Assembly (NCBI GenBank): GCA_937935355.1
Contig: CALGYR010000006.1
Location: 5,608-69,607 of the forward strand
Direction of reading: 5' to 3'
DNA length: 64,000 nucleotides
From: an uncultured bacterium
GTDB lineage: Bacteria > Planctomycetota > SZUA-567 > JAKLDR01
This document shows, in pieces, positions 10,912 through 59,853 of this stretch. The position numbers and the translations under genes were made by a program. Position 1 is the first letter of the stretch; each line of letters starts with the position of its first letter. A model generated the notes under the pieces. It worked only from the letters and a program-made list of their open reading frames with translations. It was not told where the DNA came from and did no database searches.

Positions 10912-10993
10912 CAGCCCGACGCGGTCGGCAAACTGCGTTCAGGCGCGGTCTCATCCCCCGGGTGAGGCCGCGCTGTCTTAGGAGCCCAGATTG

Positions 10994-11086
10994 GCCACAG
11001 ATGCACACAGATAAACGCAGATCTTGAGCCTGGGATTGAGGCCGTCTGTCGGCCCCAATCTGTGTGCATCTGTGTTCATCTGTGGC
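10994..11086. repeat. CACAGATG decamer-repeat locus 1 (inverted pair of 10-bp-phased direct repeats) abutting the LarA-like RBS
   Basis: 10994-11023 GCCACAGATGCACACAGATAAACGCAGATC; 11058-11086 ATCTGTGTGCATCTGTGTTCATCTGTGGC in opposite orientation. Confidence 0.6.
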
Positions 11087-11102
11087 TACCAGGAGAGATG
11101 CC

Positions 11103-17815: not shown

Positions 17816-18009
17816 CGTTCCCCAGGGTCTTTCAATTTTGCCCAACGGGCCTACAACTTGGGGCCGGCGGTGCTATCGCCGCCGGCCCCAAGTTCCCTCC
17901 AGAGCCGATCCTCGCTCGAGAGCAGGGGACCGAAAGCCAAGTCCTGACAGCAGGACTTGGCTTTCAGGTAGGCCCGTTGGGCAGAATTAAGAGACCCTGG
18001 GGCGTTCCC
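17816..18009. mobile_element. MITE-like structured element: 39/42-bp terminal inverted repeats enclosing two perfect hairpins
   Basis: Left arm 17816-17854 (CGTTCCCCAGGGTCTTTCAATTTTGCCCAACGGGCCTAC) is the near-exact reverse complement of right arm 17968-18009. Internal palindromes: 17855-17894 (AACTTGGGGCCGGCGG...CCGCCGGCCCCAAGTT) and 17932-17965 (GAAAGCCAAGTCCTG...CAGGACTTGGCTTTC). Confidence 0.5.
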
Positions 18010-41712: not shown

Positions 41713-43047
41713 ATGGCCAAGATCGCCTTCGTCGGTGCCGGAAGCCTGGGCTTCACCCGCGGGCTGGTCCGCGACCTGCTGACCTTCCCGACCATGCGCG
41801 ACGCGACCATCGCGCTCATGGACGTGGACCGGGAGCGCCTGGACTTCGCGACCCGCGCTGTCCGGACCATCGTCGAGCGCGGCAAGTACCCGGCGAAGGT
41901 CGTCCCCACCATGGACCGTAAGACGGCGCTCAAAGGGGCCGACTTCGTGGTCTGCACGATCCTGGCCGGCGGCGTGCAGGTCTGGCGCCACGACATCGAG
42001 ATCCCCAGGAAATACGGCGTGGATATCAACGTGGGCGACACCCGCGGCGTCGCCGGGATCTTCCGGGCGTTGCGCACCATCCCGGTGATGGTCTCCATCT
42101 GCCGGGACATGGAGCGGCTCTGTCCGAACGCGCTGCTCCTCAACTACACGAACCCGATGGCCATGCTCTGCCGGGCCATGCAGCGCTCCTCGTCGATCCA
42201 GCTAACCGGCCTGTGCCACAGCGTGCAGGGCACGGCCGGGATGCTCGCCAGGTGGCTGGGCGCGCCGATGAGCGAGATCGACTACGTCTGCGCCGGCATC
42301 AACCACCAGGCCTGGTATGTGAAGTTCCAGCGCAAGGGCCGGGACGTGATCCCGCTGCTTCGCCGCAAGGTGGCGGCCGACCGGAAGATCTACCGCGAGG
42401 AACTGGTGCGCAACGAGATGTTCCTGCACCTGGGCTACTACGTGACCGAGTCGAGCGGCCACAACTCCGAGTACAGCTGGTGGTTCCGCAAGCGCCCGGA
42501 TCTGGTCCGGAAATACTGCAGGAACCACCCGGGTGCCGGCTGGAACCCGGGCGAGCATGCCTACATCCTCAAGCGCTACCTCCACGCCGAGAAGAACTGG
42601 AAGAGGGAGATCCGCGACTGGTTCGCCAAGGGCGCGCCCATCAAGCTGGAGCGCGGCCACGAGTACGCCGCCTCGATCATGCACGCGCTATTGGGCGGCG
42701 AGACCTTCGAGTTCAACGGCAACGTCCCGAACACCGGGCTGATCGACAACCTGCCCCGGGGGGTCTGCGTGGAGGTGCCGGTGCTGGCAAACCGCCGGGG
42801 CCTGAACCCCATGCACGTCGGCGCGCTCCCGCCGCAGTGCGCGGCGCTCAACAACGTGAGCGTCGCCTCCGAGGAGATGGCCGTGGAGGCCGCGCTCACC
42901 GGCGACCCGGACCTGGTCTTCCAGTCGATCGCCATCGACCCGCTGACCGCGGCGATGCTGTCGCTGGCCGAGATCAGGAAGATGGTCGGGGAGATGCTCG
43001 CGAAGAACCGCGCCCACCTGCCGCAGTTCAGGTCGGTGAAGCTCTGA
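41713..43047 (+). CDS. Glycoside hydrolase family 4 (NAD/Mn-dependent alpha-galactosidase/alpha-glucosidase-like)
   Basis: '[14 protein letters not shown]' Rossmann N-terminus, '[14 protein letters not shown]', '[16 protein letters not shown]', 'GINHQAW' typical of GH4. Confidence 0.85.
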
Positions 43048-43108
43048 CTTGGAGTGCGTCCGGGGCGCCTTCGGTTCCCGCCACACGCGCATTGCCATCA
43101 AGCGGCCG

Positions 43109-43221
43109 GTTAACCACGAAGTCACAAAGCCACGAAGAAACACGAAGCGGCCTTTTCCAATGGATGGGCCAATGCTCATCTTAGTGTTTCGCTTTGTGCC
43201 TTGGTGACTTTGCGGTTGACC
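43109..43221. repeat. Palindromic CACGAAG-repeat element, copy A (imperfect ~40-bp inverted arms around a 30-bp spacer)
   Basis: Left 'GGTTAACCACGAAGTCACAAAGCCACGAAGAAACACGAAGCGG' (43109-43150); the right arm (43181-43221) is its imperfect reverse complement. Related to the element at 50614-50790. Confidence 0.5.
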
Positions 43222-43314
43222 GGCCGTTTCCGACGCCGGGGCAGCTTGATAAGCCCGCGGCCGCACTTAAAATCTTCCGCATTCGCCGTTGGAAGCCGAC
43301 CGAAAGGACGCCCC

Positions 43315-44583
43315 ATGCTCTCCCTCGAGTTCATCCGCGAGAACCCCGACCTGGTCCGCCGCGCGGTCGTCGACAAGCACGACGCCGCCGACGTGGATCG
43401 GATCCTGGCGCTCGACTCCGCGCGCCGTGCGAAGCTCACCGAGATCGAGGTCCTGAAGGCCGAGCGCAACGCCGGCTCGAAGGAAGTCGGCCGGCTCATG
43501 AAGGAGAATCGCGAGGAGGCCGAGAAGCTCAAGCTCCGCATGAAGGAGCTCGGCGAGAAGGTCGCGGCCCTCGAGAAGGAGTTCGCCGGCACCCAGGAGG
43601 AGCTCGACGGGCTCCTCCTGCGCGTCCCCAACGTCCCGGACGAGACCGTCCCGGCCGGCGCCGGCGCCGAGGGCAACGTCGAAGTCCGCTCCTGGGGGAA
43701 GAAGCCCGAGTTCGGCTTCGAGCCCAAGGCCCACTGGGACCTGGGCGAGAAGCTCGGCATCCTCGACTTCCCGCGGGCCACGAAGATCTCGGGGCACGGG
43801 TTCATCGTCTTCAAAGGGCTCGGCGCCCGGCTCGAGCGGGCCTTGATCGCCTACATGCTGGACATGGCGGCGAAGGCCGGCTACACCGAGGTGGCCGTGC
43901 CGTATCTCGTCAACCGCTCCTCGATGACCGGGACGGGGCAGCTCCCCAAGCTCGAGGAGGACATGTACCGGCTCAAGGACGACGAGCTTTTCCTGATCCC
44001 CACGGCCGAAGTCCCGGTCACGAACCTCCACGCCGGCGAGACGCTGCGGGCCGAGGGGCTGCCCCTCAAGTACTGCTGCCACTCGGCGTGCTTCCGGCGC
44101 GAGGCCGGCTCCTACGGCAAGGATACCCGCGGAATGATCCGCGTCCACCAGTTCGACAAGGTCGAGCTCGTCAAGATCGTCCCCGAGGAGGCCAGCCCCG
44201 CCGAGCACGAGGCGCTCACCGCCGACGCCGAGCGCGTGCTCCAGAGCCTCGGGCTCCACTACCGGACGATGCTGCTGTGCCGCGGGGACCTGTCTTTCGC
44301 GGCGGCGCGCTGCTACGACATCGAGGTCTGGGCGCCGGGGCAGGGCAGATTCCTGGAGGTCTCGAGCTGCTCGAACTTCCGCGACTTCCAGGCCCGGCGG
44401 ATGGGCCTCAAGTACAAGGATGGGCAGTCGAAGCCGAAGTTCTGCCACACCTTGAACGGCTCGGGCACGGCCCTGCCGCGGCTGGTGATCGCCCTGATGG
44501 AGACCTACCAGCAGGCCGACGGGAGCATCCTGCTGCCGGAGGTCATCCGGCCCTACATGGGCGGGGTGGAGAAGATCGACTAG
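43315..44583 (+). CDS. serS: Seryl-tRNA synthetase
   Basis: 'MLSLEFIRENPDLVRRAVVDKH' N-terminal coiled-coil, then class II motifs 'FRREAGSYGKDTRGMIRVHQFDKVE' and 'GSGTALPRLVIALMETYQ'. ATG 43315; the track's 38-aa extension is rejected. Confidence 0.95.
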   Translation: MLSLEFIRENPDLVRRAVVDKHDAADVDRILALDSARRAKLTEIEVLKAERNAGSKEVGRLMKENREEAEKLKLRMKELGEKVAALEKEFAGTQEELDGLLLRVPNVPDETVPAGAGAEGNVEVRSWGKKPEFGFEPKAHWDLGEKLGILDFPRATKISGHGFIVFKGLGARLERALIAYMLDMAAKAGYTEVAVPYLVNRSSMTGTGQLPKLEEDMYRLKDDELFLIPTAEVPVTNLHAGETLRAEGLPLKYCCHSACFRREAGSYGKDTRGMIRVHQFDKVELVKIVPEEASPAEHEALTADAERVLQSLGLHYRTMLLCRGDLSFAAARCYDIEVWAPGQGRFLEVSSCSNFRDFQARRMGLKYKDGQSKPKFCHTLNGSGTALPRLVIALMETYQQADGSILLPEVIRPYMGGVEKID

Positions 44584-44589
44584 GGGCTC

Positions 44590-46230
44590 TTACAGCGTCG
44601 ACATCTTCATGATGCCGTAGAGCCGCATGTTGCAGTCGGTCATGCGGCTCTGCAGCTGGTCGTTGTCGGGGTCGGCCTTGACGGCCGCCTCGTAGAGCTC
44701 CTGGGCCTTGCGGAGCAGCTTGCGCGCCTCGGACTGGTGCTGCTTGCAGTCCGGCATGTTGGGCATGGCCTTATAGTAGTGGGTGATCCCTTCCTCGAAG
44801 AGGCGGTTGGCCTCGGAGAGGTCCACCTTGGCGGTGACCCTGCTGACCGTCACCTTGACCGGGGCCTTGGGGGGATCGACGCGACTGACGCTGGAAGCTC
44901 CGTTGGGTTCCTTGATTTCCTGAGGAGGCTTGACCTCGACGCCGCTGACCTGCACCGTGGACTTGTAGTTGATGCCCTTGCGCTTGTCCATCAGGGCCAG
45001 CATCTGCTCGGAGGCCTCGAAGAAGCTGGTCTTGCGGTACATGACGTTGTCGCGGATCTTCTCGCAATAGCGCCGGGCCCAGATCTCCTGGCCGACCGAG
45101 TCGGACCAGTTGGCCTGGGCGAAGAGCCGGCTGGCCTGGTCCTCGGCGACGAGCAGCACCAGATCCTTGCCGCCGGTCTCGGCAGCGGCCCAAGCCTTCT
45201 CGAGGATGGGCAGCGACTCCTCGCGCAGTCCGTTCTCGACGGCGAAGAAGGCCGCGTCGCAGAGCTCGGGCGGAGTCGCCGCGGCGCCCAGCTTGGACAG
45301 CCGGGTATTGAGCGCCTTCTTGAGCTCGGCCCGGCGCTCGGCGGGGTCGATCTGCTGGACGTTCCGGACGTCGTCGGCCGTCAGCGTGTAGGTCATCTGG
45401 CCGCCGCCGGACGTGCCGGCCAGCACCGAGTAGCCGCCATCGGGCTTCCTGGTCACCACGCCCTTGATCTTGGTGCCGTTGACCAGCTCGACGATGGAGA
45501 TGAGCTGGTCGGCGTCGGCGCGGACCTTGATGTCCCTGGTGAGGCGGTCGAAGGCCTCGGCCTTGCGCTTGAGCGCCGCGGCCTCCTTGGCGACCTCCGG
45601 GGAGACCTTCATGATCTCGACGCTGCCGAAGGCCTTGAGCGCGCCGGGATAGTTGATCTTGGCGAGCAGGTCCCTGCCGTCGGCGATGGCCTTGGCCGCC
45701 GCGCCGTTGTCGGGGGTCGACGGTGGCGGGGGCGGAGGGGGCGGAGGCGGCGGCGGGGGATTCGTACCGGTGTTCACCGGCGTCACCGGAGTCACGGGGG
45801 TGACCGGCGTGACCGGGGTCACCGGTCGGACCGGCGTGGTTTCCGTGCGGTCCGGCCCGGTCTTCTTGCCGAGGAGTTCGTCCTTAAAGGCCAGCCCCGC
45901 CCCCACCGCCCCCGCCAGGACCATGAACATGATCAGCATGGTCATGCGGCTGCCGCCGGAACCTCTGGACGGACGGTAGCTGGCGGTGCCTACTGCCCCG
46001 CGCTTGCCAGTGCCCACCGCGGACCGGCCGCCCGTTCCCACCTTGGGGGTCTTGCCGGTTCCGGCCGCTTTGCCGTTGCCGTTACTGGGGGTTGGTTCTG
46101 GCACGAAGACTCCCTTCCGCCTCCCAAATGTCGTGCACCCAACGACATAGATATATACACCACCGCGGGGCGTCTTGTCAACGAACTGCGAAGCGGGCTT
46201 CCCGGGCCATTGCAGGAAAGGTAGTTTCAC
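44590..46230 (-). CDS. Hypothetical membrane-anchored protein with (PVT)n repeat and 13-residue poly-Pro linker
   Basis: TM 'MTMLIMFMVLAGAVGAGLAF', then 'RPVTPVTPVTPVTPVTPVNTGTNPPPPPPPPPPPPPSTPD' encoded by 9-bp GTCACCGGn tandem repeats (45770-45840) and a G/C run (45718-45757). C-terminal globular region without recognised motifs. Confidence 0.55.
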   Translation of the reverse strand: MKLPFLQWPGKPASQFVDKTPRGGVYIYVVGCTTFGRRKGVFVPEPTPSNGNGKAAGTGKTPKVGTGGRSAVGTGKRGAVGTASYRPSRGSGGSRMTMLIMFMVLAGAVGAGLAFKDELLGKKTGPDRTETTPVRPVTPVTPVTPVTPVTPVNTGTNPPPPPPPPPPPPPSTPDNGAAAKAIADGRDLLAKINYPGALKAFGSVEIMKVSPEVAKEAAALKRKAEAFDRLTRDIKVRADADQLISIVELVNGTKIKGVVTRKPDGGYSVLAGTSGGGQMTYTLTADDVRNVQQIDPAERRAELKKALNTRLSKLGAAATPPELCDAAFFAVENGLREESLPILEKAWAAAETGGKDLVLLVAEDQASRLFAQANWSDSVGQEIWARRYCEKIRDNVMYRKTSFFEASEQMLALMDKRKGINYKSTVQVSGVEVKPPQEIKEPNGASSVSRVDPPKAPVKVTVSRVTAKVDLSEANRLFEEGITHYYKAMPNMPDCKQHQSEARKLLRKAQELYEAAVKADPDNDQLQSRMTDCNMRLYGIMKMSTL

Positions 46231-46360
46231 TGCGGAGACGCTGAGAAGCAGAGATTGCTTGTGAGCGCGGCCAACGGTCGTTGACGGGAAAGGCTCCCGC
46301 CGCGGACCGGATTCGGCCTCTGCGCCTCCGCGTCTCGGCGGTAAGTATCGTTTCTTGCGT
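46205..46360 (+). ncRNA. Conserved non-coding element, copy B
   Basis: 'CACTGCGGAGACGCTGAGAAGCAGAG...CCGCGGACCGGATTCGGCCTCTGCGCCTCCGCGTCTCGGCGGTAAGTATCGTTTCTTG': ~50/62 identity to copy A in the 3' block and similarity in the 5' block. The hairpin is degenerate here. Confidence 0.3.
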
Positions 46361-46377
46361 TGGCTCCAGAGGAGTCG

Positions 46378-48420
46378 CTATTGCTGCGGACTGGCCGTCG
46401 CCCGGCGGAAGGCCCAGACCTCGGCGGAGCCGATGCCCTCCTGCCCGAAGGCGTCCACGGCCAGCACGCAGTAGCGGCGCATGGCGTCGCCGGGCAGCGA
46501 CTCGTCGGCGAACCCGGTCTCCTTGACCGGCTCGGCGTTGAGGCGCTTGGGCTTCTCGTAGGTCGCGGCGATCCGGTAGACGTTGTAGCCGACCACCGAC
46601 GGCGAGGGGTGCTTCGCCCACTTGAGCGTCACCTTGCCGGTCTCCGGCTCGGCCGCGGCGACCTCCGGGGCGTCCATCTGCTCCGGGATGGTCAGGGCGA
46701 AGGCCGAGGGGCCGCTCTCGACGCCGAGCCGGTTCACCGCCCGGACGTGGTAGGCCCAGAGGGCGTGGATCGCGCCGGACGGCTCGGGCGCGGCCAGGTC
46801 CACGGTCTTGTCCGTGAAGCGCGGCTCGGAGATCGGCTCGGCGTTGAGCTTCATGAAAGCCTCGGCGCCGCCCAGGCGCGAGACCTGGCCGCCAGAGACC
46901 GAGAGCACCCGTACGCGGGCGCGGTAGACGTTGTAGCCGATCACGTCCTTCTCGGAATTGACTGCCCAGGAGACCTCGGTCTCTTTCTCGTTCCTGAGGA
47001 CCACGAGAGGGCAGGCCGGGACGGCCGGTTGTGCCCTGAGCGGCGCGCTGAGGCGCTCGCCGACCTTCAGGCGATACCAGTAGACCCGGCCGCGCTCGAC
47101 TTTTTCGTCGCGGAAGGTCCCGGTGAACTTCGGCTCGATTTCGGCCCAGGCGAGCTTCCAGGGCTGCTCCCCTTCAGCGCGCAGGAGCGGACAGGCCAGT
47201 TCGGTCTTTTGTGGAACGGTCACGACCACGGCCTTGTCTTCGGCGGTGACCACCAGAGAGGAGTTCGCCAATATGCCCTCCGGGGCCTTGCCTTCCCTGT
47301 ACCGGTAGGTCCATGTCTCCCGGGTCGTGGGGTGGCCGGTGTGCCAGTCGGCGTGCCCGGGCCCGATCACGTGGACGTTGAGCTCGGGGACGTAGACGGC
47401 GCAGTGGTTGAAGTAGGCCGGTCCCGGCTCGGCCGGGGTGACTTCGGTCCAGTCGGGCTTGTCGAGGTCGAGCGTCCAGACGCGCATGCGCCACTTGCCG
47501 CTGCCAGGGCTGCCCTCCGCCGGGAAGCAGAGTGTCTGTCCGGCCGCCTCGTCGAAGGACAGGGGCGAATTGGTGCCGGCCGGCGGCGAGTGCTCCGGCC
47601 GGTGTTCCTTCCAGGCGTTGGCCGCCGGGTCGTAGGTCCAGAGGCCGGTCCTCCGGGGCGGCTCGCCCACCTCGGGCCCGGCGGCCGCGAGCATGACGAA
47701 GGTCTTGCGCTTGCGGTCGTAGCACAGGCTCCCGCCCAGGAAGGCCGGCGGCCTGGCCGGCGGGTTCATCTCGAACCAGCGGTTGGCCCCGCTGTCGTAA
47801 GCCCAGGTGTCGTTCTCCTGGCCCTCGCCGGAGAACATCAGGGTGATGAAGTGGTCGGGGCTCCAGGCCAGCGCCTTGTAGGGCCGGTTGGAGGGCCCGA
47901 AGGCCGGCCGCATGGGAGCCCACCGGTCGGCGGCCGCGTCGTAGAGCCACGGGGAGCTGGCGCGCAGGCCCCAGCCCTTCTGGCGGGTGAACTGCCAGCC
48001 GTGGCCGCCGGAGTGCCCCTCCATCTGCACCACCCGGCCGGCGACCTCGTCGTAGGTCGAGTCGCGCACGCAGCACGAGCCCATCGGACGGCGCGGCGGG
48101 TGGCCCTCCTTCCAGGCGTTGGCCGCCGGATCGTAGAGCCAGGTCTCGTCGAGCTGGGGCGAGTCGCACTGCAGGCCGTGGCCGCCCCACATCACCACCT
48201 TGTGGTTGCGGCGGTCATAAGCCAGCGAGGACTCGTAGCTCAGCCGCGGCAGGAGGCCCACGTCCTCCATCGGCCGGGCGGCCAGCCGGCGGACCCAGGT
48301 GCCCGGCTTCTGCTCGGCGACCGAGGGGACAGGCTGCGGCTGCTCCGCGGCTGGCGCGGGCTCTCCTTCAGCAGTCGCCGCCGCCGCCGCCGCCAGGAAC
48401 ATGCCGAGCACGAAGTTCAT
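46378..48420 (-). CDS. Secreted Kelch-like beta-propeller protein with two C-terminal fibronectin type III domains
   Basis: ATG 48420; signal peptide 'MNFVLGMFLAAAAAATAEG'. Kelch-like blades ('WLYDPAANAWKE', 'WAYDSGANRWFEM', 'WTYDPAANAWKEH'). FN3 'EVSWAVNSEKDVIGYNVYRA' and 'VTLKWAKHPSPSVVGYNVYRIA'. The 297-aa Arg-rich N-extension in the track is rejected. Confidence 0.8.
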   Translation of the reverse strand: MNFVLGMFLAAAAAATAEGEPAPAAEQPQPVPSVAEQKPGTWVRRLAARPMEDVGLLPRLSYESSLAYDRRNHKVVMWGGHGLQCDSPQLDETWLYDPAANAWKEGHPPRRPMGSCCVRDSTYDEVAGRVVQMEGHSGGHGWQFTRQKGWGLRASSPWLYDAAADRWAPMRPAFGPSNRPYKALAWSPDHFITLMFSGEGQENDTWAYDSGANRWFEMNPPARPPAFLGGSLCYDRKRKTFVMLAAAGPEVGEPPRRTGLWTYDPAANAWKEHRPEHSPPAGTNSPLSFDEAAGQTLCFPAEGSPGSGKWRMRVWTLDLDKPDWTEVTPAEPGPAYFNHCAVYVPELNVHVIGPGHADWHTGHPTTRETWTYRYREGKAPEGILANSSLVVTAEDKAVVVTVPQKTELACPLLRAEGEQPWKLAWAEIEPKFTGTFRDEKVERGRVYWYRLKVGERLSAPLRAQPAVPACPLVVLRNEKETEVSWAVNSEKDVIGYNVYRARVRVLSVSGGQVSRLGGAEAFMKLNAEPISEPRFTDKTVDLAAPEPSGAIHALWAYHVRAVNRLGVESGPSAFALTIPEQMDAPEVAAAEPETGKVTLKWAKHPSPSVVGYNVYRIAATYEKPKRLNAEPVKETGFADESLPGDAMRRYCVLAVDAFGQEGIGSAEVWAFRRATASPQQ

Positions 48421-48503
48421 GTGCGTTCCCGCCTCTTTCCCAGCTCCGGCTCCAGCCCCCGGACCCCAGACCCGAGCCCCGAGACCCGAGACCCTTCTCG
48501 CCG

Positions 48504-50528
48504 CTACTTCTCGTACGCCTCCAGCTCCGCCAGCCCCGGGCCGAAGGAGTCCTGGCGGGCGGTCTCGTAGCGCTCGACTTCCAGGACCAGTCTGCGCGCC
48601 CTGGCCGGCGGGAAGGCGACGTCCAGCGTCCGGAACATGTCCGGCGCTCGGACCGAGCCCTCCGCCAGCGTGGTCGCGGTTCCGGAGGCATCGAAGGCCA
48701 GCAGCCGGTACTGGGTGATCGGCCGCTCCGACGTCCCCAGGAAGCGGACCCGTCCGACCGCGAGCTCCTTTCCGAAGTCGACGGCGAAGCGCCCGCCGGG
48801 GCCGGCCGAGAGGACCGTGGCGGTCCCGGGCTGGCCGTCGGCGAAGCTGCCGGCCAGGTTGCCGCCGACCTCGGGGGCGAGCGGTTCGGCCGCGACCTTG
48901 CCGCCGCCCTCCCTGGCAAGCGCCGCGGCCACCAGGCCGGCGGGCGCGGCGCCATCGAGGGCCAGCAGCGCCGTTCGGGCGGCGGAGAGCGCTTCGAGCT
49001 CGCCCTCGAGCTCCGGCTGCCGGCCGGCCCCGTCGCGGAAGCCGTAGGCGTCGTCGGGGTCCAGGTCGAAGAGCCGCGGCTCCTTCCGGCGGTTGTAGTC
49101 CCAGGCGAGCTTGATGACTTCGAGCAGCAGCCCGTGCTTCTCCCGCGGGTCGGCGGCGGCCCCGGCCCGTTTCGCGAGCCGCGCCGCGCCGGCCACGGAT
49201 TGATAGTGGTCGAGCACCGCCCGGTGGTGCAGGGCGATGCGCTTCCTGGGCGGCGTGTTGGCCGGGGACTTGGTCCGGGCGGCGCGGAACCGGTCGGCCA
49301 GCGCCTTCCACTTACCGCAGGTGGTGTCGCTGGCGAGCGGATCGGGAGAGGCCAGTTCCGCGTCCATGGCCTCGAGCCCCAGGAAGTATCCGGCGATTTC
49401 GTCGCCGGCCTCGCCGCCGCCGTAGTAGAGCCGGCAGTAGTCCCTGACGAAGCCCTCGACCGGCTGCGGCCCCTTCCAGGCCGAGAGCGCGAAGTAGTCC
49501 GCGGCGATGCTGAACTCGTCGAGGAAGAAGCGCCGGGGGGAGCAGTCCATGCTGATATAGGCTGGCCTGTCGGAGGCAAGGAACTGGAAGGCCTGGATGT
49601 CGCCGAGCGGCCCTCGAGGTCCCGAAAAAGGCGTGCCCAGACACTTGATGGCCGAACTCGCGATCGACTGTTCGAGGGCGCTGGCCTGGACCCCGGGAAG
49701 CTTCTCGGTCGTCTTCTTTCGAGCCTCGGCCACTTTGACGGCGGCCTCCTCCGGCTTCTCGTCGCCCTTGAGGCCGGCCTGTGCTCGCCACCATGCATCG
49801 GGCGCGGTCAGTTCCAGCTCCAGCCCGCGGCGCAGGACCTCACGGGCTGCGGCCGAGGTCGAGCCGATGCCGGCTCGGTCCACCCGGACCACCAGCCGGT
49901 TAAGGCCGTTGGCGGCCATCCAGTCGAGGTAGCGCGGGGCCACCGCCCCGAGCGAGTCGGTCACCAGAGCCCTTATCGCGTGGACCGGGGCGTCCTTGAT
50001 CGGCTCCCGCGGCCAGGCGGTCTTCGCGTCCATCGGCACTTCGCCGAGGTCGTGCAGCGAGCAGAAGCGCCAGCCGCGCTCACGCAACAGCCGGGCCGCG
50101 GCGTAGACCACCGCCCGGGGGCTCGCGCCGGCCAGCACCGTCGCGCCGCCGTCGGTGGTTATCAGGAAGCCTTCGGGATTGGGCTGATCCTTCTGCCCCG
50201 GCAGGACTGGCAGGTCGGCCTTGAACTTGGCCAGCGCCGGGTTCGAGTCCGGAGTGCCCATGATGATAGCCGCCGCGTCGCCGGCGGCCGGGGCCGAGGC
50301 GCCCACCGCTGCCTCCGCGCCCAGGTCGCGGCGCAGCCGCTCGGCCAGGAACTCGGCGGCGTACTTCTCGGGATCGGTGGCCTTCTCGCCCAGGGCGATG
50401 ACGAAGCGCGGCCGGGCCGGCGGCTCCTTCCGGGCCGGCTCTCCGCTCATCGCTCGCGCGCTCAGGCACAACAAGAGCCCGGCGGCGGCCAGCGCCGCCC
50501 CGGACCTGACATTCGGTTTCATCGCCAA
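48504..50528 (-). CDS. Secreted glycoside-hydrolase-like protein with C-terminal discoidin (F5/8 type C) domain
   Basis: Signal peptide 'AALAAAGLLLCLSARAMSGEP'. N-terminal alpha/beta domain resembling GH20b/GH67-N ('IIMGTPDSNPALAKF...GFLITTDGGATVLAGASPRAVVYAAARLLRERGW'). C-terminus '...RVRFLG...YRLLAFDASG...GPGLAELEAYEK' is discoidin-like. Confidence 0.6.
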   Translation of the reverse strand: MAMKPNVRSGAALAAAGLLLCLSARAMSGEPARKEPPARPRFVIALGEKATDPEKYAAEFLAERLRRDLGAEAAVGASAPAAGDAAAIIMGTPDSNPALAKFKADLPVLPGQKDQPNPEGFLITTDGGATVLAGASPRAVVYAAARLLRERGWRFCSLHDLGEVPMDAKTAWPREPIKDAPVHAIRALVTDSLGAVAPRYLDWMAANGLNRLVVRVDRAGIGSTSAAAREVLRRGLELELTAPDAWWRAQAGLKGDEKPEEAAVKVAEARKKTTEKLPGVQASALEQSIASSAIKCLGTPFSGPRGPLGDIQAFQFLASDRPAYISMDCSPRRFFLDEFSIAADYFALSAWKGPQPVEGFVRDYCRLYYGGGEAGDEIAGYFLGLEAMDAELASPDPLASDTTCGKWKALADRFRAARTKSPANTPPRKRIALHHRAVLDHYQSVAGAARLAKRAGAAADPREKHGLLLEVIKLAWDYNRRKEPRLFDLDPDDAYGFRDGAGRQPELEGELEALSAARTALLALDGAAPAGLVAAALAREGGGKVAAEPLAPEVGGNLAGSFADGQPGTATVLSAGPGGRFAVDFGKELAVGRVRFLGTSERPITQYRLLAFDASGTATTLAEGSVRAPDMFRTLDVAFPPARARRLVLEVERYETARQDSFGPGLAELEAYEK

Positions 50529-50613
50529 TGACTATTCCGAAGGCGGCGGAAAGTTCAAGAAGAAAACGGCCGGCGAGGCCGCGTCCTTACCCTCCTTCGT
50601 GTTCGAGCGGGTG

Positions 50614-50790
50614 CTTTCACCACGAAGTCACGAAGACACGAAGAAGTCACCGAGAACGACATGGGATGTCGTGCGCGGCCATGGCCCCGGGAGTCCGGGC
50701 GTTATCGCCGCGGATTTCGAACCATCGCCGTTCTTCGTGTCTTCTTCGTGCCTTGGTGGCTTTGTGGTTCGTATGCCACGAATCGGAGAG
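50614..50790. repeat. Palindromic CACGAAG-repeat element, copy B (~45-bp inverted arms around a ~70-bp spacer containing CGACATgggATGTCG)
   Basis: Left 'CACCACGAAGTCACGAAGACACGAAGAAGTCAC' (50618-50650); right 'TTCTTCGTGTCTTCTTCGTGCCTTGGTGG' (50741-50769) is its reverse complement. Sits in the divergent promoter region between the 48504 gene and the DJ-1 gene. Confidence 0.5.
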
Positions 50791-50877
50791 AGAGATGGAG
50801 TCGTTAAGCCATGCGTCCTGCCGGGGCGGAATCTCCCCGCTTCGCCGCCGGTTTGATGTCCGAAAGGAGAGTGCGCC

Positions 50878-51402
50878 ATGAAGGCTCTGATACTGGCCGC
50901 CGACGGATTCGAGGACAGCGAGTTGCTCGTGCCCATGTACCGCCTGAAGGAGGAGGGCTTCGAGGTGGACGTGGCCACGCCCACCGGGAGCAGGATCACC
51001 GGCAAGCACGGCTACGAGGTGCCGGGCACGGCCGACCTGTCCCAGGTCCGTCCCGACGAGTACGACCTGCTGGTCATCCCCGGCGGGCGCGCCCCGGAGA
51101 CCGTGCGTCTCGAGGAACAGGCCGTGGCCGCGACCCGCGCGATGATCGACAAGAACAAGATCGTCTGCGTCATCTGCCACGGCGCCCAGGTGCTGGTTTC
51201 CGCCGGCGCGGTCAAGGGCCGGAAGCTCACCTGCTGGATGGGCATCCGCGACGACGTCAAGGCCGCCGGCGGAGAGTTCCGCGACGAGGAGGTGGTGGTC
51301 GACCGCAACCTGGTCACCAGCCGCTTCCCCGGGGACCTGCCGGCCTTCTGCCGCGAGATGATGAAGCTGGTCCGGCAGCGGAAGCTTTCTCCCAACCGAT
51401 GA
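50878..51402 (+). CDS. DJ-1/PfpI family protein (intracellular protease/glyoxalase-like)
   Basis: 'MKALILAADGFEDSELLVP...YDLLVIPGG...KIVCVICHGAQVL' with the nucleophile-elbow Cys-His typical of PfpI/DJ-1. Confidence 0.85.
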   Translation: MKALILAADGFEDSELLVPMYRLKEEGFEVDVATPTGSRITGKHGYEVPGTADLSQVRPDEYDLLVIPGGRAPETVRLEEQAVAATRAMIDKNKIVCVICHGAQVLVSAGAVKGRKLTCWMGIRDDVKAAGGEFRDEEVVVDRNLVTSRFPGDLPAFCREMMKLVRQRKLSPNR

Positions 51403-52240: not shown

Positions 52241-54285
52241 TGGGGCTCCAGCCGGGATTCGGGGGTTGGGGACTGGGGGCCAGGGGCAGGCGACGAGGTG
52301 GAGGGCGCGGCCTCTTCCGTTCCCGTTCCCCGCCCCTCGTCCCCCGCCCCCGGCATCACGGGCAGCAACTCCCGGAAGGCCGACGAGCCCCACACCGGGG
52401 CCGGCGGCATGGACACGGGATCCCGGCTCGGCGCGGCCACGACCGGCGAGGGCAGTTCGTCCCAGCCCTCGGGCTTGCGTCCGATGGGAATCCAGAGGAT
52501 GCGCACGCGCCTGGCCTGCGCGCGCCGCTCGTAGCCGAAGAGGCCGCCGAGGATGCGGAAGCGCCTGGCGCTCTCCCCCGCGGTCTGGCGGGTCTCCCCG
52601 GGCGGAGGGGCGGCCGCCGGGCCGCCCGTCGAGCCGCGCCGCGAGTAGTCGAATAGCGGGAAGAAGCGCACGTTCCTGCCCTCCGGCGTGCGCACGTGCT
52701 TGAAGAGGTTGAAGAGCGCGTGGTCGCGCAGCGTGCCGTCGGCGAAGCACTCGTGGCGGTAGAGCGTGAAGAATGGGCCGTAGACCCGGTCGAAGGCCAG
52801 CCGGTTGCGGAACCACCAGGGCTCCAGGGTCGTGAAGAACCTCTCGCCGCTCGGCCCGCGGTCATAGCGGAAGAGCGGCCAGAAGAGCGCGTTCACGTCG
52901 CTCCTCATGTCCCCGGGGTCGATCGGGCGTTCGGCGCGGCCGGGCGGCTCCGGATAGGCGCCGGGTTCCCGGATGGCCGCGAGCCTCCGGCGCTCGGGGG
53001 GCAGCGGCGGCAGGACCCGCACCCGCCGCCCGTCGAGCGTCTTCTCCACCCACTCCCGGCGCACGTAGCGGAAAACGAACGCCGAGGTCACCGTGGTCAC
53101 GCGCATGGGCGGCTCGTCGCCCGTCTCCCGGATGTAGAACGGCCAGAGCACCTGGCGACTCTCCCCGTAGGCGCCCACCCGGTGGCCGTAGAACGGGAAG
53201 ATCTTGAAGCCGTGGACGCTCTCTCCCGTGATCCAGGATACGAAGGGCCATGGCGCGTGCCACTCGACGAACTCGTTGTTCTTGTGCCAGGCGTGCTTGC
53301 GGCCGAAGAGCGGCCAGAGCACGCTGTAGTAACTGATCTGGTCGCCACGGTAGCTCATCCAGAACGGGAAGAAGACCCAGGTCTCGGAGGGGTGCGGCGT
53401 GTCCAGGGCCAGCTGCCAGTGGTGGAAGAAGGGCCAGAGCGCGAAGACCCGGCGGTAGCGCCCGTCGCGCGCGTCGATCCCGTAGAGCGGCCAGACCCGC
53501 CAGCCGCGAACGTCGGGTCCGCGCCACACGCCGAAGACCGGCCAGAGCACGTTCCACGAATGGTAGAACTCGCTCTGGTAGTCCACCCATAGCGGGAAGG
53601 CCGCGAAGCGGATCCACCTGGTCCCGAGCTTGCCCTTGAGCAGTCCGGCGACCGGGAAGACCGCGAAGTAACTCCCGCGGGCGGTGTCGGAGCCGCCCCA
53701 CAGCACGGGCATGACCGCCCAGTCGGTCTTCGCGGCCGGCTCTCCGCCGGAGCGGTCGACGCGCTTGTCCCACCAGACGATCGGGAAGACGTGCAGGCGG
53801 TTCGACTCGCCGTTGCGCGTGGCCCACACGATGGGCCAGAGCGCGCGGAAGTCCCAGCGGATCGAGCCCGGGCCCTCGTCCTCGAGATAGCCGAGCGGTC
53901 GGACGATGGTCACGCGGTTGCCCGGCTGCGACCACCCCGTGGCCAGGGGCAGCAGCGCCCCCCAGTCGAGCCGGCCGGCGGGCGTCTCCTGCCAGAAGAA
54001 GAACGGCCCGGATCCCTCGCTGAGCCCCCGGGCAGCCGCGGCCTGTGCCGCCTCTTCGGCCGGTGGCGCCGGGCGGAGGGCCGCGGCCCGGAGCGGCTCG
54101 TTGCGCTCCGGAACCTTCGGCCGGCCGCATCCCGCAACGGACGCCAGCAGCAAGCCACAGATGCACACAGATGCACACAGATGCCGAATACCGCCTGGAA
54201 CGACCGGAGACCGGCTCCGCCTGCTCCGGCCATCTTCGCAAATCCGGAACCCGGAACCCGGAACCCGGAACATCCCGTTATTCAT
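52237..54285 (-). CDS. Lipoprotein with ~20 short aromatic 'WP(L/F/I)(F/Y/W)' repeats (682 aa), translationally coupled to the MlaF-like ATPase
   Basis: ATG 54285 overlaps the ATPase stop (ATGAATAA). Lipobox 'LLLASVAGC'. Repeats 'FPIVWW', 'MPVLWG', 'WPVFGVW', 'WPLYG', 'WPFFHHW', 'FPFWMSY', 'WPLFGRK', 'WPFVSW', 'FPFYGH', 'WPFYIRE', 'FWPLFRYD'. The 5' end contains (CCGGAAC)x4 and CACAGATGCA x3 repeats. Confidence 0.6.
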   Translation of the reverse strand: MNNGMFRVPGSGFRICEDGRSRRSRSPVVPGGIRHLCASVCICGLLLASVAGCGRPKVPERNEPLRAAALRPAPPAEEAAQAAAARGLSEGSGPFFFWQETPAGRLDWGALLPLATGWSQPGNRVTIVRPLGYLEDEGPGSIRWDFRALWPIVWATRNGESNRLHVFPIVWWDKRVDRSGGEPAAKTDWAVMPVLWGGSDTARGSYFAVFPVAGLLKGKLGTRWIRFAAFPLWVDYQSEFYHSWNVLWPVFGVWRGPDVRGWRVWPLYGIDARDGRYRRVFALWPFFHHWQLALDTPHPSETWVFFPFWMSYRGDQISYYSVLWPLFGRKHAWHKNNEFVEWHAPWPFVSWITGESVHGFKIFPFYGHRVGAYGESRQVLWPFYIRETGDEPPMRVTTVTSAFVFRYVRREWVEKTLDGRRVRVLPPLPPERRRLAAIREPGAYPEPPGRAERPIDPGDMRSDVNALFWPLFRYDRGPSGERFFTTLEPWWFRNRLAFDRVYGPFFTLYRHECFADGTLRDHALFNLFKHVRTPEGRNVRFFPLFDYSRRGSTGGPAAAPPPGETRQTAGESARRFRILGGLFGYERRAQARRVRILWIPIGRKPEGWDELPSPVVAAPSRDPVSMPPAPVWGSSAFRELLPVMPGAGDEGRGTGTEEAAPSTSSPAPGPQSPTPESRLEPQ
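54154..54185. repeat. CACAGATG decamer-repeat locus 3 (GCCACAGATGCACACAGATGCACACAGATGCC)
   Basis: Three exact 10-bp-phased copies; lies within codons ~34-43 of the lipoprotein gene. Confidence 0.6.
54244..54271. repeat. (CCGGAAC)x4 heptanucleotide tandem repeat inside the 5' end of the lipoprotein CDS
   Basis: ccggaac|ccggaac|ccggaac|ccggaac exact; encodes 'FRVPGSGFR' (codons 6-14 on the minus strand). Confidence 0.7.
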
Positions 54286-56158: not shown

Positions 56159-57010
56159 CTAGCGGACCGCCCTGGCGCCGGCCGCGAGCCGTTGCCGGAC
56201 CCCGGCGCTCTCGAACACCGCCAATACCGGGAGGTGGTCGGAGGCCCCGGCCTTCACGACTGCCGCGCGGCAGCAGAAAAGTTCCGGCGAATAGAGGACG
56301 TGGTCGAGGCGGTCCTCGAAGGTCCAGAAGCGCGTGGGCCAGCGCCAGGTGTCGCTCTTGGGATCGAACTCCCTGAGCGCGTCGGTGAAGCCCCGCCCGA
56401 CCAGCCATTCCACGGCCGAACCGCCGTCGCTCTCGTTGAAGTCGCCGAGGACAAGCGTTGGCTTGCCCGGCTCGAGCAGCCCGTTGAGGAACTTGATCTC
56501 CTCGAGTCGCCGGCCGGACGCGGCGAAGTACGCGCCGATGCTCACGCCGCCCGTGTCGCTCAACGAGGGCCTCAGGTGGACGGAGAGCACCTGGATCTCG
56601 CCGGCCGGGGTTCCGACGGCGAGCACCCAACCGAAGAACCAGCCGGCCGGCGGAGTGGCCCGGGCCACCTCCCTGACCGGCCAGCGCGAGAAGACGGCCA
56701 TGCCGCCGGCGCCGCGCCCATGCCGGAAGAGCGCGTGCGGATAGCGCGCCGCCAGGAGCGGCCGGAGATATCCCTCCCACGCCGGGGTGGTCTCCTGCAG
56801 GCAGATCACGTCCGCTCCGGATTCGAGGATCGCCCGGGCGGACAGGTCGGCGCGATAGCCACCCCAGTTGATGTTGAAGGTCATGGCCGTGAAGCTCGGC
56901 CCGACCGGCGCGACCGGCTCCCGCGGTCGGGTGCAGGAGGAGCAAAGCACCGCCGCAACCAGGGCCAAGCCGCCGGGAACCAGCCTGCGCATAGGCAGTC
57001 TCATGTCCAA
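56159..57010 (-). CDS. Endonuclease/exonuclease/phosphatase (EEP) family lipoprotein
   Basis: 'MTFNINWGGYRADLSARAILESGADVICLQET...QVLSVHL...LVLGDFNESD...SDHLPVLAVF' EEP catalytic motifs. Lipobox 'AAVLCSSC'. Confidence 0.8.
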   Translation of the reverse strand: MDMRLPMRRLVPGGLALVAAVLCSSCTRPREPVAPVGPSFTAMTFNINWGGYRADLSARAILESGADVICLQETTPAWEGYLRPLLAARYPHALFRHGRGAGGMAVFSRWPVREVARATPPAGWFFGWVLAVGTPAGEIQVLSVHLRPSLSDTGGVSIGAYFAASGRRLEEIKFLNGLLEPGKPTLVLGDFNESDGGSAVEWLVGRGFTDALREFDPKSDTWRWPTRFWTFEDRLDHVLYSPELFCCRAAVVKAGASDHLPVLAVFESAGVRQRLAAGARAVR

Positions 57011-57070
57011 TCGCCTCCGAAGCCGGGGGGATTATAGCCGCGCCGGCCGGGGCGCGAGGGGAAAACGGGA

Positions 57071-57164
57071 GGACGCGGGGACATGGGGACACGGTGACGC
57101 GGTGACACGGTGACACGGTGACACGGGGACGCGGTGACACGGGGACAGGGGGACGCGGAGACAG
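57071..57164. repeat. Tandem array of ~11 octamers GG(G/T)GAC(A/G)N
   Basis: ggggacat|ggggacac|ggtgacgc|ggtgacac|ggtgacac|ggtgacac|ggggacgc|ggtgacac|ggggacag|ggggacgc|ggagacag; the 8-bp period is incompatible with coding. Confidence 0.7.
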
Positions 57165-57398
57165 AAGAAAATACGAAATATCGTCGCGTGGTGGCGACTC
57201 CGCGCCAGCCCTCTTCTTTCCTCCCGGAAGAAGACACAGCCAAGAAGAGCCAACTGATGTACCAGCCACTCGGGAAATGAAAACCATCACGGCAGTCCCC
57301 TCACGGGGACTCATGATACGAGGGAGACAAGGGGACGGTGACAAGGAGATGCGGAGGATACCGGAAACAGGGACTCTGCCGGAAGGCTCTTGCCTCCT

Positions 57399-57550
57399 GT
57401 CCCCGCGTCTCCGCGTCTCCGCGTCCCCGCGTCCCCGCGTCCCCGTGTCCCCATGCCCCCTTGTCCCCTTGTCCCCGTGTCCCCGTGTCACCATGTCCCC
57501 GTGTCACCATGTCCCCGCGTCCCCCCGTCGCCGCGTAACCGCGTCATCCC
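57399..57550. repeat. Tandem array of ~19 octamers GTCCCCGY, the reverse complement of the 57071 array
   Basis: gtccccgc|gtctccgc|gtctccgc|gtccccgc|gtccccgc|gtccccgt|gtccccat|gccccctt|gtcccctt|gtccccgt|gtccccgt|gtcaccat|gtccccgt|gtcaccat|gtccccgc... The two arrays flank a 230-bp lower-GC segment containing the unit palindrome GTCCCCTCACGGGGAC (57297-57312). Confidence 0.7.
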
Positions 57551-57615: not shown

Positions 57616-58602
57616 ATGATCCGCCTGGCGATAGTCGGCTGCGGCGTCCACTCGGAGTTCTGCCACGCCGTCCCTCTGGCCCGGTACGTTCGCGAGCATC
57701 CGGGCGAGGTCGAGCTGGCCGCAGCCTGCGACCTGGACCCGGCCAAGGCCGCCGAGTTTCAGATCAAGTACGGCTTCGCCCGCGCCTACTCCGAGATGCG
57801 TGCGATGCTCGCCGCCGAGAAGCCCGACGGCGTCGTCTGCGTGGTGCCGGTCGGGCTCATCTCCCGGGTCAACGCCGAGCTGCTCCGCGCCGGGGTGCCC
57901 TGCACGGTCGAGAAGCCGCCGGGCGCCACCCGAGAGCAGGTGCGAGAGCTCGCGCGCCTGGCTCGCGAGACGGGCACTCCGCACATGGTCTCGGTCAACC
58001 GGCGCTTCACCCCGCTCCTGGTCCGCGCGCTCGAATGGGCGCGCGCCCAGGGGCCGCTCCACTACGTGCGGGCCACCATGGTCCGCCACGCCCGGAGCGA
58101 GCCCGGTTTCATCTGGAGCACGGCCATCCACGGCGCCGATGCCCTGCGCTACATCGCCGGCGAGATGGAGGGATTCGGCCTGAGCGTCAGCGACACACCG
58201 GGGCTCTCTGCCAGGTGGTACGACGTCTCGCTGACCTTCGCCGGCGGCTGCCGCGGGCGGCTCGAGGTGCTGGTCACCGCGGGGATGGCCGAGGAGAGCT
58301 ACGACCTCTTCGGCGAGGGCTTTCGCGCGCGCCTGGCCGGCCCCATCCGCCAGGGCATGTTCCAGCCGGGGACCCGCCTGGAGTGCTGGCGCGACAACCG
58401 GCTGGAGGTCTCGGAGGAGGCCCCGGCCGACGCGCCGGTCGACGTGGTCGGCGGCCCCTACGGAGAGGTCGAGGAGTTCGTCTCCGCCCTGCGCGAGGGC
58501 CGCAGCCCGCGGCCCACGCTGGATGACGTCCTGCCTTCGGCCGAGCTGTGCTTCAGCCTGGCCGAGGCGGCTGGAGTCACGCCGGGAACCGGAGAAGACT
58601 GA
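57616..58602 (+). CDS. Gfo/Idh/MocA family oxidoreductase
   Basis: 'MIRLAIVGCGVHSEFCHAVPLARYV...GFARAYSEMRAMLAAEKPDGVVCVVP...VEKPPGATREQVREL' Rossmann NAD(P)-binding N-terminus and the conserved EKP motif. ATG 57616 after GAAGGAGA. The track's 166-aa extension through the octamer array is rejected. Confidence 0.85.
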   Translation: MIRLAIVGCGVHSEFCHAVPLARYVREHPGEVELAAACDLDPAKAAEFQIKYGFARAYSEMRAMLAAEKPDGVVCVVPVGLISRVNAELLRAGVPCTVEKPPGATREQVRELARLARETGTPHMVSVNRRFTPLLVRALEWARAQGPLHYVRATMVRHARSEPGFIWSTAIHGADALRYIAGEMEGFGLSVSDTPGLSARWYDVSLTFAGGCRGRLEVLVTAGMAEESYDLFGEGFRARLAGPIRQGMFQPGTRLECWRDNRLEVSEEAPADAPVDVVGGPYGEVEEFVSALREGRSPRPTLDDVLPSAELCFSLAEAAGVTPGTGED

Positions 58603-59440: not shown

Positions 59441-59824
59441 CCTTCTTCAGTGTGCCCCCTGCACGCTGCGCCCGGGGCTAAGCAACGGCGGGGCCAAAGA
59501 CGGGGTGGACGGCTGCCTGCGCTAAGGCGCCCAAATGCGCCACTTGTCAATACGCGGGCATCTTCCCGGGCGGCTCATGTCCTGATGTGGATTCCCACAC
59601 CAGCCGACGTTCGTCGGGGACAACAACGGTTTGGGGGGAAGCTATCAGCCGCGGATGAACGCCGACAAACGCGGACGGGCTCTTCACCGCAGAGGACGCT
59701 GAGGCGCGCAGAGGACGGCCATTGCCTGCATGAGCCGGAGCGCGGCGGAGTACGTTGCGTATTCGAAAGCCCCAGCCGCGAACCGGAGGACGCCTCCGCG
59801 CCCCCTCTGGTGGAATCCTCGTAT

Positions 59825-59853
59825 CCGTGTCCATCTGTGTCCATCTGTGGCTG
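59825..59853. repeat. CACAGATG decamer-repeat locus 4 (CCGTGTCCATCTGTGTCCATCTGTGGCTG) ~130 nt upstream of tyrS
   Basis: Reverse complement GCCACAGATGGACACAGATGGACAC; same motif family. Confidence 0.55.

Follow-up and report, generated by a model that had tools for sequence, protein, structure and literature searches.

Two copies of an inverted-repeat element lie in intergenic positions of the 64-kb window analyzed here, that is, the whole 64,000-nucleotide (nt) stretch of contig CALGYR010000006.1, from the metagenome-assembled genome (MAG) of an uncultured member of the Planctomycetota. Copy A lies between a GH4 gene and serS, and copy B occupies the divergent region between a minus-strand gene of 672 amino acids (aa) and a plus-strand DJ-1/PfpI gene. 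Both have convergent arrays of three to four tandem CACRAAGN octamers per arm, and they belong to a class of elements that is associated, in other genomes, with genes of the GxxExxY nuclease family. The features of the two loci are as follows.

Convergent octamer arrays at serS and DJ-1

GH4 gene: 41713-43047 (+), with its stop 53 nt before copy A
Copy A, whole inverted-repeat element: 43100-43229, tandem octamers, a spacer and a reverse-complement array
Copy A left arm: 43100-43147 (+), an outer stem extension, AAGCGGCCGGTTAAC, followed by four CACRAAG units
Copy A spacer: 43148-43179, 32 nt between the unit arrays, with no GxxExxY remnant
Copy A right arm: 43180-43229 (+), CTTAGTG, CTTTGTG-C, CTTGGTG-A and CTTTGCG, then GTTGACCGGCCGTTT
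Sigma-70-like promoter match: 43246-43273 (+), TTGATA-16-TAAAAT, 10/12 positions, the sole such match within 42900-51000
serS: 43315-44583 (+), 3' of copy A and of the promoter match
672-aa gene: 48504-50522 (-)
Copy B, whole inverted-repeat element: 50619-50768, CACRAAGN octamers, a spacer and a reverse-complement array
Copy B left arm: 50619-50658 (+), ACCACGAAGTCACGAAGACACGAAGAAGTCACCGAGAACG
Copy B spacer: 50659-50728, nested palindromes ACGACAT-GGG-ATGTCGT plus a GC-rich stem, with no GxxExxY remnant
Copy B right arm: 50729-50768 (+), CGTTCTTCGTGTCTTCTTCGTGCCTTGGTGGCTTTGTGGT
DJ-1/PfpI gene: 50878-51402 (+)

The left-arm units of copy A are, in order, CACGAAG-T, CACAAAG-C, CACGAAG-AAA and CACGAAG, and together they form the array ACCACGAAGTCACAAAGCCACGAAGAAACACGAAG at 43113-43147; the corresponding unit stretch of copy B is ACCACGAAGTCACGAAGACACGAAGAAGTCACCGAG, at 50619-50654. 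The best inverted repeat of copy A pairs 43100-43137 with 43192-43229 (38 nt, 82% complementary, 54 nt apart), and that of copy B pairs 50619-50658 with 50729-50768 (40 nt, 83% complementary, 70 nt apart). The original prediction had placed two palindromic CACGAAG-repeat elements in these intergenic regions, at 43109-43221 and 50614-50790, with arms around unrelated spacers and a perfect palindrome in the spacer of copy B. The arms and inverted arrays are present at both places, the measured stems (43100-43229 and 50619-50768) are near those limits, and the palindrome is the ACGACAT-GGG-ATGTCGT listed above.

Neither copy is a product of base composition. The observed 26 occurrences of CACGAAG in the window compare with 9.1 expected and were reached in none of 100 shuffles, and the three-unit pattern CACGAAGNCACGAAGNCACGAAG, with up to three mismatches allowed, matches copies A and B alone where no match is expected. 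The folding z-scores are -9.1 for copy A and -7.1 for copy B. The two left arms are identical at 32 of 39 positions, as are the two right arms (about 82% in each case), whereas the two spacers do not align and are unrelated in sequence; A and B are therefore not a simple local duplication. The agreement between the arms extends to positions that are free to vary in the family and to a common left/right asymmetry, in which a CACGAAG-type unit stands opposite a CACCAAG-type unit. These shared free positions and the shared asymmetry indicate that A and B derive from one master copy.

Since the promoter match lies between copy A and serS, copy A is flanked by the GH4 stop on one side and by the putative serS promoter on the other. 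Most likely both copies are passengers without effect, copy A between GH4 and serS and copy B in the divergent promoter region of the DJ-1 gene.

Octamer arrays and GxxExxY nuclease genes

We define the class by two convergent arrays, each with at least two to three tandem C-R-C-N-R-R-G(N) units; whichever strand is read, the purine-rich array is the 5' one. A scan for exact matches to CACRAAGNCACRAAGNCACRAAG in one genome per species (596 Gb) returned at least 120 loci, against about two expected by chance from calculation. The phyla among the matches listed include Bacteroidota, Verrucomicrobiota, Planctomycetota, Acidobacteriota, Chloroflexota, Actinomycetota, Nitrospirota, Spirochaetes and others; the proteobacterial matches among those listed are from Alpha-, Beta-, Gamma- and Deltaproteobacteria, and the cultured strains among them are Desulfonema magnum, Thiohalophilus thiocyanatoxydans and a Streptomyces. 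IMG/VR viral contigs contributed 108 further stretches. The possibility of a family private to this genome or lineage was discarded, because arrays of these octamers recur across numerous bacterial phyla and on viral contigs; nor are A and B the only two copies, with spacers that align, as a simple local duplication would require. Most of 133 elements share one layout, in which an array is followed by a spacer of 10-100 nt and then by the reverse array; the purine-rich array leads, no matter which strand is read. An unbiased survey of period-8 repeats at those loci brought out the sister units CGCAAAG, CACAGAG, CGCGGAG, CACGGAG and CGCAGAG.

The association of this class with a gene is seen in elements with long spacers. 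In two of them, one in a Desulfobacterales MAG (L010) and one in an alphaproteobacterial MAG (L058), the arms exactly bracket an open reading frame (ORF) of 130-132 aa that encodes a GxxExxY protein (TIGR04256, E 1e-39 to 1e-42; PF13366, PDDEXK_3). Four GxxExxY genes were present in 1.86 Mb of array loci, and arrays adjoin all four, with exact bracketing in two; of the others, the gene at L049 adjoins an array but its left arm is degenerate, and at L073 the contig end cuts the locus and the right arm alone is visible. A protein-first survey confirmed 574 metagenomic relatives, of which the best 80 were examined. A unit array lies within 200 nt of the GxxExxY gene in 78 of these 80 loci under a lenient definition of the unit, and under a strict definition a forward array upstream together with a reverse array downstream is found in 38 of 68 loci with full flanks, compared with none of 478 shifted control windows.

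The cassettes come in two layouts, arm-gene-arm and hairpin-gene-hairpin. CACRAAG arms like those of A and B bracket the gene in L010, in L058 and in many of the surveyed loci L232-L311, and a GxxExxY cassette in another organism (L252/L315) has a left arm that matches the first 26 nt of the copy B left arm without a mismatch. In cultured examples the gene is wedged between co-directional host genes: Sphingomonas parapaucimobilis has the order fabD-[CGCGAAG x3]-GxxExxY-[CTTCGCG x2]-fabG, Bacteroides finegoldii has radA-[CACAGAGGA x3]-GxxExxY-[CTCTGTG x3]-next gene, and Gemmatirosa has the hairpin-gene-hairpin form. GxxExxY genes also exist in the Planctomycetota (P0208, Pirellulales).

The type of octamer co-varies with the protein that it flanks. 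Across 69 loci, nuclease identity and octamer identity are correlated (Spearman 0.34; Mantel 0/2000), and the partial correlation is 0.35 after GC content is taken into account. The same unit is used in 54% of pairs whose proteins are at least 70% identical, against 6-10% of pairs at 40-60% identity.

The interval between fabD and fabG in Sphingomonas offers a view of how the cassette behaves, since seven genomes carry it there. GxxExxY identity is 81-91% within cassettes having GGAG-type arms, 78% within those having GAAG-type arms and 63-74% across the two types, so that the nuclease clusters by arm type; the grouping of the hosts differs. In one pair of hosts with 99-100% identical FabD and FabG, identity in 30-nt blocks is 93-100% outside the cassette and falls to 40-75% inside it, and the limits of the drop are exactly the fabD stop and the fabG start. 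One genome (L325/L326) has an empty fabD-fabG site of 37 nt with no arrays. In another (L327, 2455-2950), two 1-nt deletions shift the frame of the nuclease gene, while the arms are intact and the left array has three units instead of four; L327 and an intact carrier, L328, both Sphingomonadaceae, encode identical FabD proteins, and the pair is a snapshot of cassette decay and of slippage in unit number. Given filled, empty, decayed and exchanged alleles, the arms and the ORF are therefore gained, lost and swapped as one unit. At fabD|fabG the arms belong to the element and not to a pre-existing target.

These alleles bear on an alternative in which ORF-less array pairs are landing pads: the nuclease would cut such a pair, which would be converted, as in homing, when the cut is repaired with an ORF-bearing copy as template, and the hairpins themselves would have arisen and spread by other means. 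That arms bracket the ORF within a few nt would be expected of such a process, as would the co-variation of protein and unit type and the lack of ORF remnants in ORF-less spacers. At L010, where the arms lie within a few nt of the ORF, an ORF-less copy with a matching unit type lies directly beside the cassette, and PD-(D/E)XK homing endonucleases such as I-Ssp6803I exist. However, the single empty site recovered, the L325/L326 fabD-fabG interval, has no array pair, and there the arms moved with the gene. The arm homology available for repair would be just about 25-30 bp, and the origin of the ORF-less copies would be left unexplained. We regard the landing-pad account as unlikely.

The protein itself is small, with about 125-150 codons in full-length copies. 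Its conserved residues are GPGLLE..YE, D93 and E103-x-K105, so that the D...ExK site is intact, and in a fold search the nearest match was Cas4; a sequence search of the PDB with the GxxExxY profile gave no match. On these grounds GxxExxY is a minimal RecB/Cas4-like PD-(D/E)XK nuclease that is probably active. Clustered at 50% identity, the family has 32,004 representatives at E <= 1e-3 and 14,009 at E <= 1e-10. It has been catalogued as a family of unknown function with multiple transfers (PMC3424549). Plasmid records of GxxExxY are rare, numbering seven. Many representatives (P0361-P0365 and others) are about 275-295 aa long with two matched stretches, that is, tandem or fused double copies.

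On balance we think it probable, with no more than moderate confidence, that A and B are ORF-less members of this widespread element and, together with their sister elements in the window, live as non-autonomous satellites that depend on the nuclease. According to this model, the octamer arrays would be the cognate recognition sites of the GxxExxY nuclease, laid out in the manner of terminal inverted repeats, and the nuclease would act on its own arms and, in trans, on ORF-less copies. The resulting break or nick would be resolved by recombination or repair, by which the element would be moved, copied or replaced with no target-site duplication. A, B and other copies without an ORF would persist as intergenic satellites of a cognate nuclease encoded elsewhere in the genome. 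Binding and cutting of the arrays by the nuclease, the trans-dependence of the ORF-less copies and the mode of spread are thus predictions of the model. A broader proposal, which we put forward tentatively and with somewhat less than even confidence, is that octamer arrays and GxxExxY/PDDEXK_3 proteins together form an undescribed pan-bacterial repeat-plus-enzyme system, in which nuclease variants would recognize particular octamers and would mobilize, copy or defend array-flanked DNA, seeding genomes with hundreds of gene-less satellites, of which A and B would be examples. The data also allow a Chi-like reading by analogy, in which convergent octamers around a RecB/Cas4-like nuclease might stop or redirect end resection.

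Several observations weigh against the satellite model. A search of the 64-kb window turned up neither a GxxExxY gene nor a remnant of one (best E-value 0.77), and the spacers of 52 ORF-less elements have no remnant either, so that internal deletion is at most a conceivable origin of the ORF-less copies. Direct repeats of k = 2-9 around 116 elements occur at chance, which gives no sign of target-site duplication. No insertion polymorphism of an ORF-less copy was found, the other contigs with copy B and DJ-1 being identical strains, and synteny upstream of serS is not kept in relatives whose SerRS is 81-90% identical. No GxxExxY gene was present in 50,697 phage records (INPHARED), and the hairpins on viral contigs have no nuclease gene nearby. 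In Sphingomonas the cassette stays at one locus across species, which looks more like allelic exchange or domestication than like jumping. The enrichment of elements at 3' gene ends, described below, could mean a role at the RNA level. Finally, we know of no precedent for transposition by a lone PD-(D/E)XK protein.

Putative recognition sites, hairpins and other elements in the window

Inverted arrays might be kept either as paired protein sites or as a selected RNA stem. In 116 ORF-less CACNAAG elements, complementarity between the arms at free positions is at chance level: the spacer base between units is complementary in 35% of cases against 36% expected, and unit position 4 in 44% against 37%. 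Mismatches counted on the sense strand in 44 cassettes show no bias, 53 being of the G-U type and 51 of the A-C type. A run of five T within 20 nt downstream is present at 15 of the 116 elements. In five orthologous Sphingomonas cassettes both sides have changed in 6 of 18 arm pairs, and these double-sided changes are switches of whole units from one type to another that accompany the nuclease variant. Because free positions pair at chance, G-U bias is absent and T-tracts are rare, we read the arrays as inverted, putative protein-recognition sites, with the hairpin arising probably, in the main, as a by-product of inverting one degenerate motif. An RNA hairpin under selection was rejected as a candidate on account of the chance pairing of variable positions and the lack of a G-U excess on the sense strand.

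The opposite view, that the RNA hairpins are primary and serve as terminators, 3'-end stabilizers or RNase III sites, with GxxExxY genes merely sitting within or between them, would account for several features. The folds of A and B are stable by the z-scores given above, and copy A lies between the GH4 stop and the promoter-like site of serS. In a survey with a crude ORF caller the elements fell into 14 convergent, 20 tandem and 3 divergent contexts, mostly 10-70 nt past stop codons, and, averaged over the elements, the upstream flank is rich in A and the downstream flank in T. In hairpin-rich genomes and on viral contigs the elements punctuate gene boundaries; on the IMG/VR contigs L143, L138 and L207, phage structural genes have complete CACRAAG hairpins on both sides. 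However, besides the chance-level complementarity of variable arm positions, the balance of G-U and A-C mismatches and the T5 runs in only 15 of 116 elements, A and B themselves have no T-tract, and the strand asymmetry is independent of gene direction: folding-energy strand preference showed no trend with it (10 for, 7 against, with the crude ORF caller). Half of the full elements in the window (3 of 6) lie in divergent promoter regions. No Rfam family matched in a scan of the window at the gathering threshold, and when copy A and a canonical short element (L044) were scanned by E-value, the only matches were sub-threshold ones to generic long hairpins (miRNA precursors). A role of the stem alone would also leave the conservation of the octamers across phyla and their co-variation with the nuclease unexplained. 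We therefore consider a primary RNA role improbable. Intrinsic termination was likewise dismissed for the main stems of A and B, which were not called by the scan and are followed by GTTGACC and GTTCG with no T run.

Transcripts may nonetheless feel side effects of hairpin folding. The left array often ends 0-30 nt before a start codon and is Shine-Dalgarno-like (GGAG/GAAGG), and it is therefore possible that the left array sequesters ribosome-binding sites in transcripts.

A and B are not the only representatives of the class in the window, where at least four more full members and a half-array occur, their units being different octamers that also follow C-R-C-N-R-R-G-N:

CACAGATG / CGCAGAT member: 10973-11097, arrays, a spacer of 35-45 nt and reverse-complement arrays
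CGCRGAG-type member: 46231-46343, ending 35 nt downstream of the stop of a minus-strand Kelch gene (46378-48420)
Half element: 54156-54182 (+), CACAGATGCA x3, with no obvious partner arm
Giant member: 57054-57531, arms of about 100 nt with about 13 octamers each (GGGGACAC/GGTGACAC/GGTGACGC) and a spacer of about 250 nt
Compound member: 59660-59852, outer CRCGGAT-type arms and inner CGCAGAG-type arms

The units of all these elements fit C-R-C-N-R-R-G/T-N. The original prediction had set A and B apart from the CACAGATG repeats, a separation that does not hold, the architecture and the unit form being the same in both. It had also set them apart from an element at 17816, and this distinction stands: the inverted repeat at 17820-18002 has arms of 35 nt that are non-repetitive and 91% complementary, separated by a spacer of 113 nt that contains stems of its own, and it belongs to a different family. 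The giant member occupies the divergent region between genes at 56159-57004 (-) and 57616-58602 (+), and its spacer has no GxxExxY remnant. The arrangement at 59660-59852 suggests that two unit types are nested there.

Some further features of the window and of related loci may be recorded. A heptamer run, (GGAACCC)x4, follows the CACAGATGCA x3 array by about 60 nt (54156-54271 for the whole), at the boundary of two minus-strand genes. The neighbor of serS at 44590-46104 (-) is an ORF with a proline-rich, low-complexity stretch of PVT repeats and no Pfam match. The SerRS encoded in the window is 90% identical to the SerRS of another MAG assigned to the Planctomycetota. The loci of relatives have similar hairpins built from yet other units; in one relative with 88% identical SerRS, a CGCCGAT-type hairpin (L313:3427-3554) lies between the upstream gene and serS, in the same placement relative to serS as copy A, and both the unit type and the upstream gene differ.

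Within this window the finding has modest consequences; with regard to the class, the association with the nuclease is a testable and fairly surprising lead. If the link is true, PF13366/TIGR04256, which is a very large family of PD-(D/E)XK proteins, would gain its first functional handle. The link would also account for a class of intergenic repeats from many phyla that annotation turns into spurious low-complexity ORFs and at which metagenome assemblies break. Octamer-specific nuclease variants would then be candidates for programmable recognition of repeated DNA motifs.

Comparison with known repeat and nuclease systems

In the searchable literature, earlier description of octamer arrays was found just in a Geobacter genome paper and in incidental mentions, and the association of the array class with the GxxExxY nuclease family was not found described. 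Aklujkar et al. (2009, PMC2700814) described, at dozens of intergenic places in Geobacter metallireducens, paired sites on opposite strands in which a unit of seven or eight nucleotides is repeated 3-5 times in tandem; the class 2 unit, TCTCCGTS, corresponds to CACGGAGA read as its reverse complement. Compared by published description, these sites and ours are identical in architecture, multicopy and variable in distance, and CACGGAGA belongs to the unit family seen here, whereas the Geobacter classes GTTGCTYN and MTYCTGA fall outside the C-R-C-N-R-R-G form. That report concerned one genome, interpreted the sites in terms of IHF/HU and did not make the link to a nuclease gene.

Its suggestion of IHF/HU binding (PMC2700814) is the basis for a further explanation, in which the arrays are sites of a host chromosomal protein, either IHF/HU-like or another global regulator. 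The absence of pairing covariation suits protein sites of any kind, and the three window elements in divergent promoter regions are where a regulator might be expected. Against this, the Geobacter proposal is speculation, most elements lie at 3' ends and not at promoters, phyla whose nucleoid proteins differ greatly have these octamers in common, and a tight, unit-specific tie to one nuclease family is not predicted. We consider a host protein very unlikely to be the reason for the arrays.

Tandem repeats of similar size are also known from another setting. The short tandemly repeated repetitive (STRR) heptanucleotides of heterocystous cyanobacteria, reportedly described by Mazel in 1990, resemble the octamer arrays in being intergenic tandem repeats of 7-8 nt with many copies. 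STRR differ in having a period of 7, in being confined to one lineage and in not being defined by convergent inversion, and no partner gene is known for them.

The GxxExxY cassette can be compared with PD-(D/E)XK homing endonucleases (I-Ssp6803I) and with solo Cas4-like nucleases, in which a small nuclease module is likewise exchanged horizontally between conserved genes. Unlike the homing endonucleases, the GxxExxY gene is bracketed by repeat arrays, and no homing site or activity is known for it. Unlike Cas4, GxxExxY has no Fe-S module, as judged from its size of about 125 aa. The intervening sequence (IVS) of 23S rRNA genes, for example that of Coxiella burnetii with S23p (PMC4990558), is similar in that a small selfish ORF lies within long-stem terminal inverted repeats and inserts into otherwise conserved transcription units. 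However, the IVS resides in rRNA helices, is excised by RNase III, carries a four-helix-bundle cargo and has no tandem-octamer arms. The octamer elements are placed between protein-coding genes and show no pairing covariation in their arms.

The original prediction had called the two copies REP/MITE-like, that is, like repetitive extragenic palindromes (REPs) or miniature inverted-repeat transposable elements (MITEs). The likeness holds for their interspersed, palindromic and intergenic appearance, but it is superficial, since neither an HUH transposase partner nor target-site duplication was found. Like MITEs, they are short and non-coding, and they have terminal inverted repeats that match the ends of gene-bearing relatives. 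Such relatives with the same ends do exist, and their gene encodes a PD-(D/E)XK nuclease, with no known transposase activity. Unlike MITEs, they have no target-site duplication, no DDE transposase and no recognizable remnants of internal deletion. That A and B might be a classical MITE of a DDE transposon, or a family of the REP/RAYT type, is the natural first thought for small intergenic elements with terminal inverted repeats and many copies. It is largely refuted and now hardly credible: flanking direct repeats of k = 2-9 are at chance around the 116 elements, no transposase lies between the arms of any long copy, the spread across phyla is unlike that of REP families, and the one RAYT-like gene encountered (L012) is flanked by a different, non-octamer REP. 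This gene, at L012:661-1195 in a Planctomycetota MAG, is an HUH gene with the motif HVHLIF and its own REP, TGTAGCACAGCCGCCCTCGGCTGTG..., and octamer hairpins are present on the same contig.

The closest parallel to the satellite model nevertheless comes from REP and REPIN sequences, which are reportedly tied to RAYT transposases of the HUH Y1 type (work attributed to Nunvar in 2010, Bertels and Rainey in 2011 and Ton-Hoang in 2012); the satellite copies would stand to GxxExxY as REPs and REPINs do to RAYT, with an enzyme of another fold. Both groups consist of short, imperfect intergenic palindromes, mostly near gene ends, with many gene-less copies for each enzyme gene and with the enzyme gene itself flanked by inverted repeats. 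In both, the repeat sequence co-varies with the clade of the enzyme and there is no target-site duplication. They differ in the partner fold, PD-(D/E)XK (Cas4/RecB-like) here instead of an HUH tyrosine transposase, and in the arms, which are tandem octamer arrays here and a unique hairpin with a conserved GTAG-type head in REPs. Octamer unit types recur across phyla, in contrast to the species-specific REPs, and the nuclease gene here, unlike that of RAYT, is often multi-copy. If the link between arrays and nuclease is true, the octamer elements would represent a second, mechanistically different partnership of a repeat and a dedicated enzyme, of the kind exemplified by REP and RAYT.

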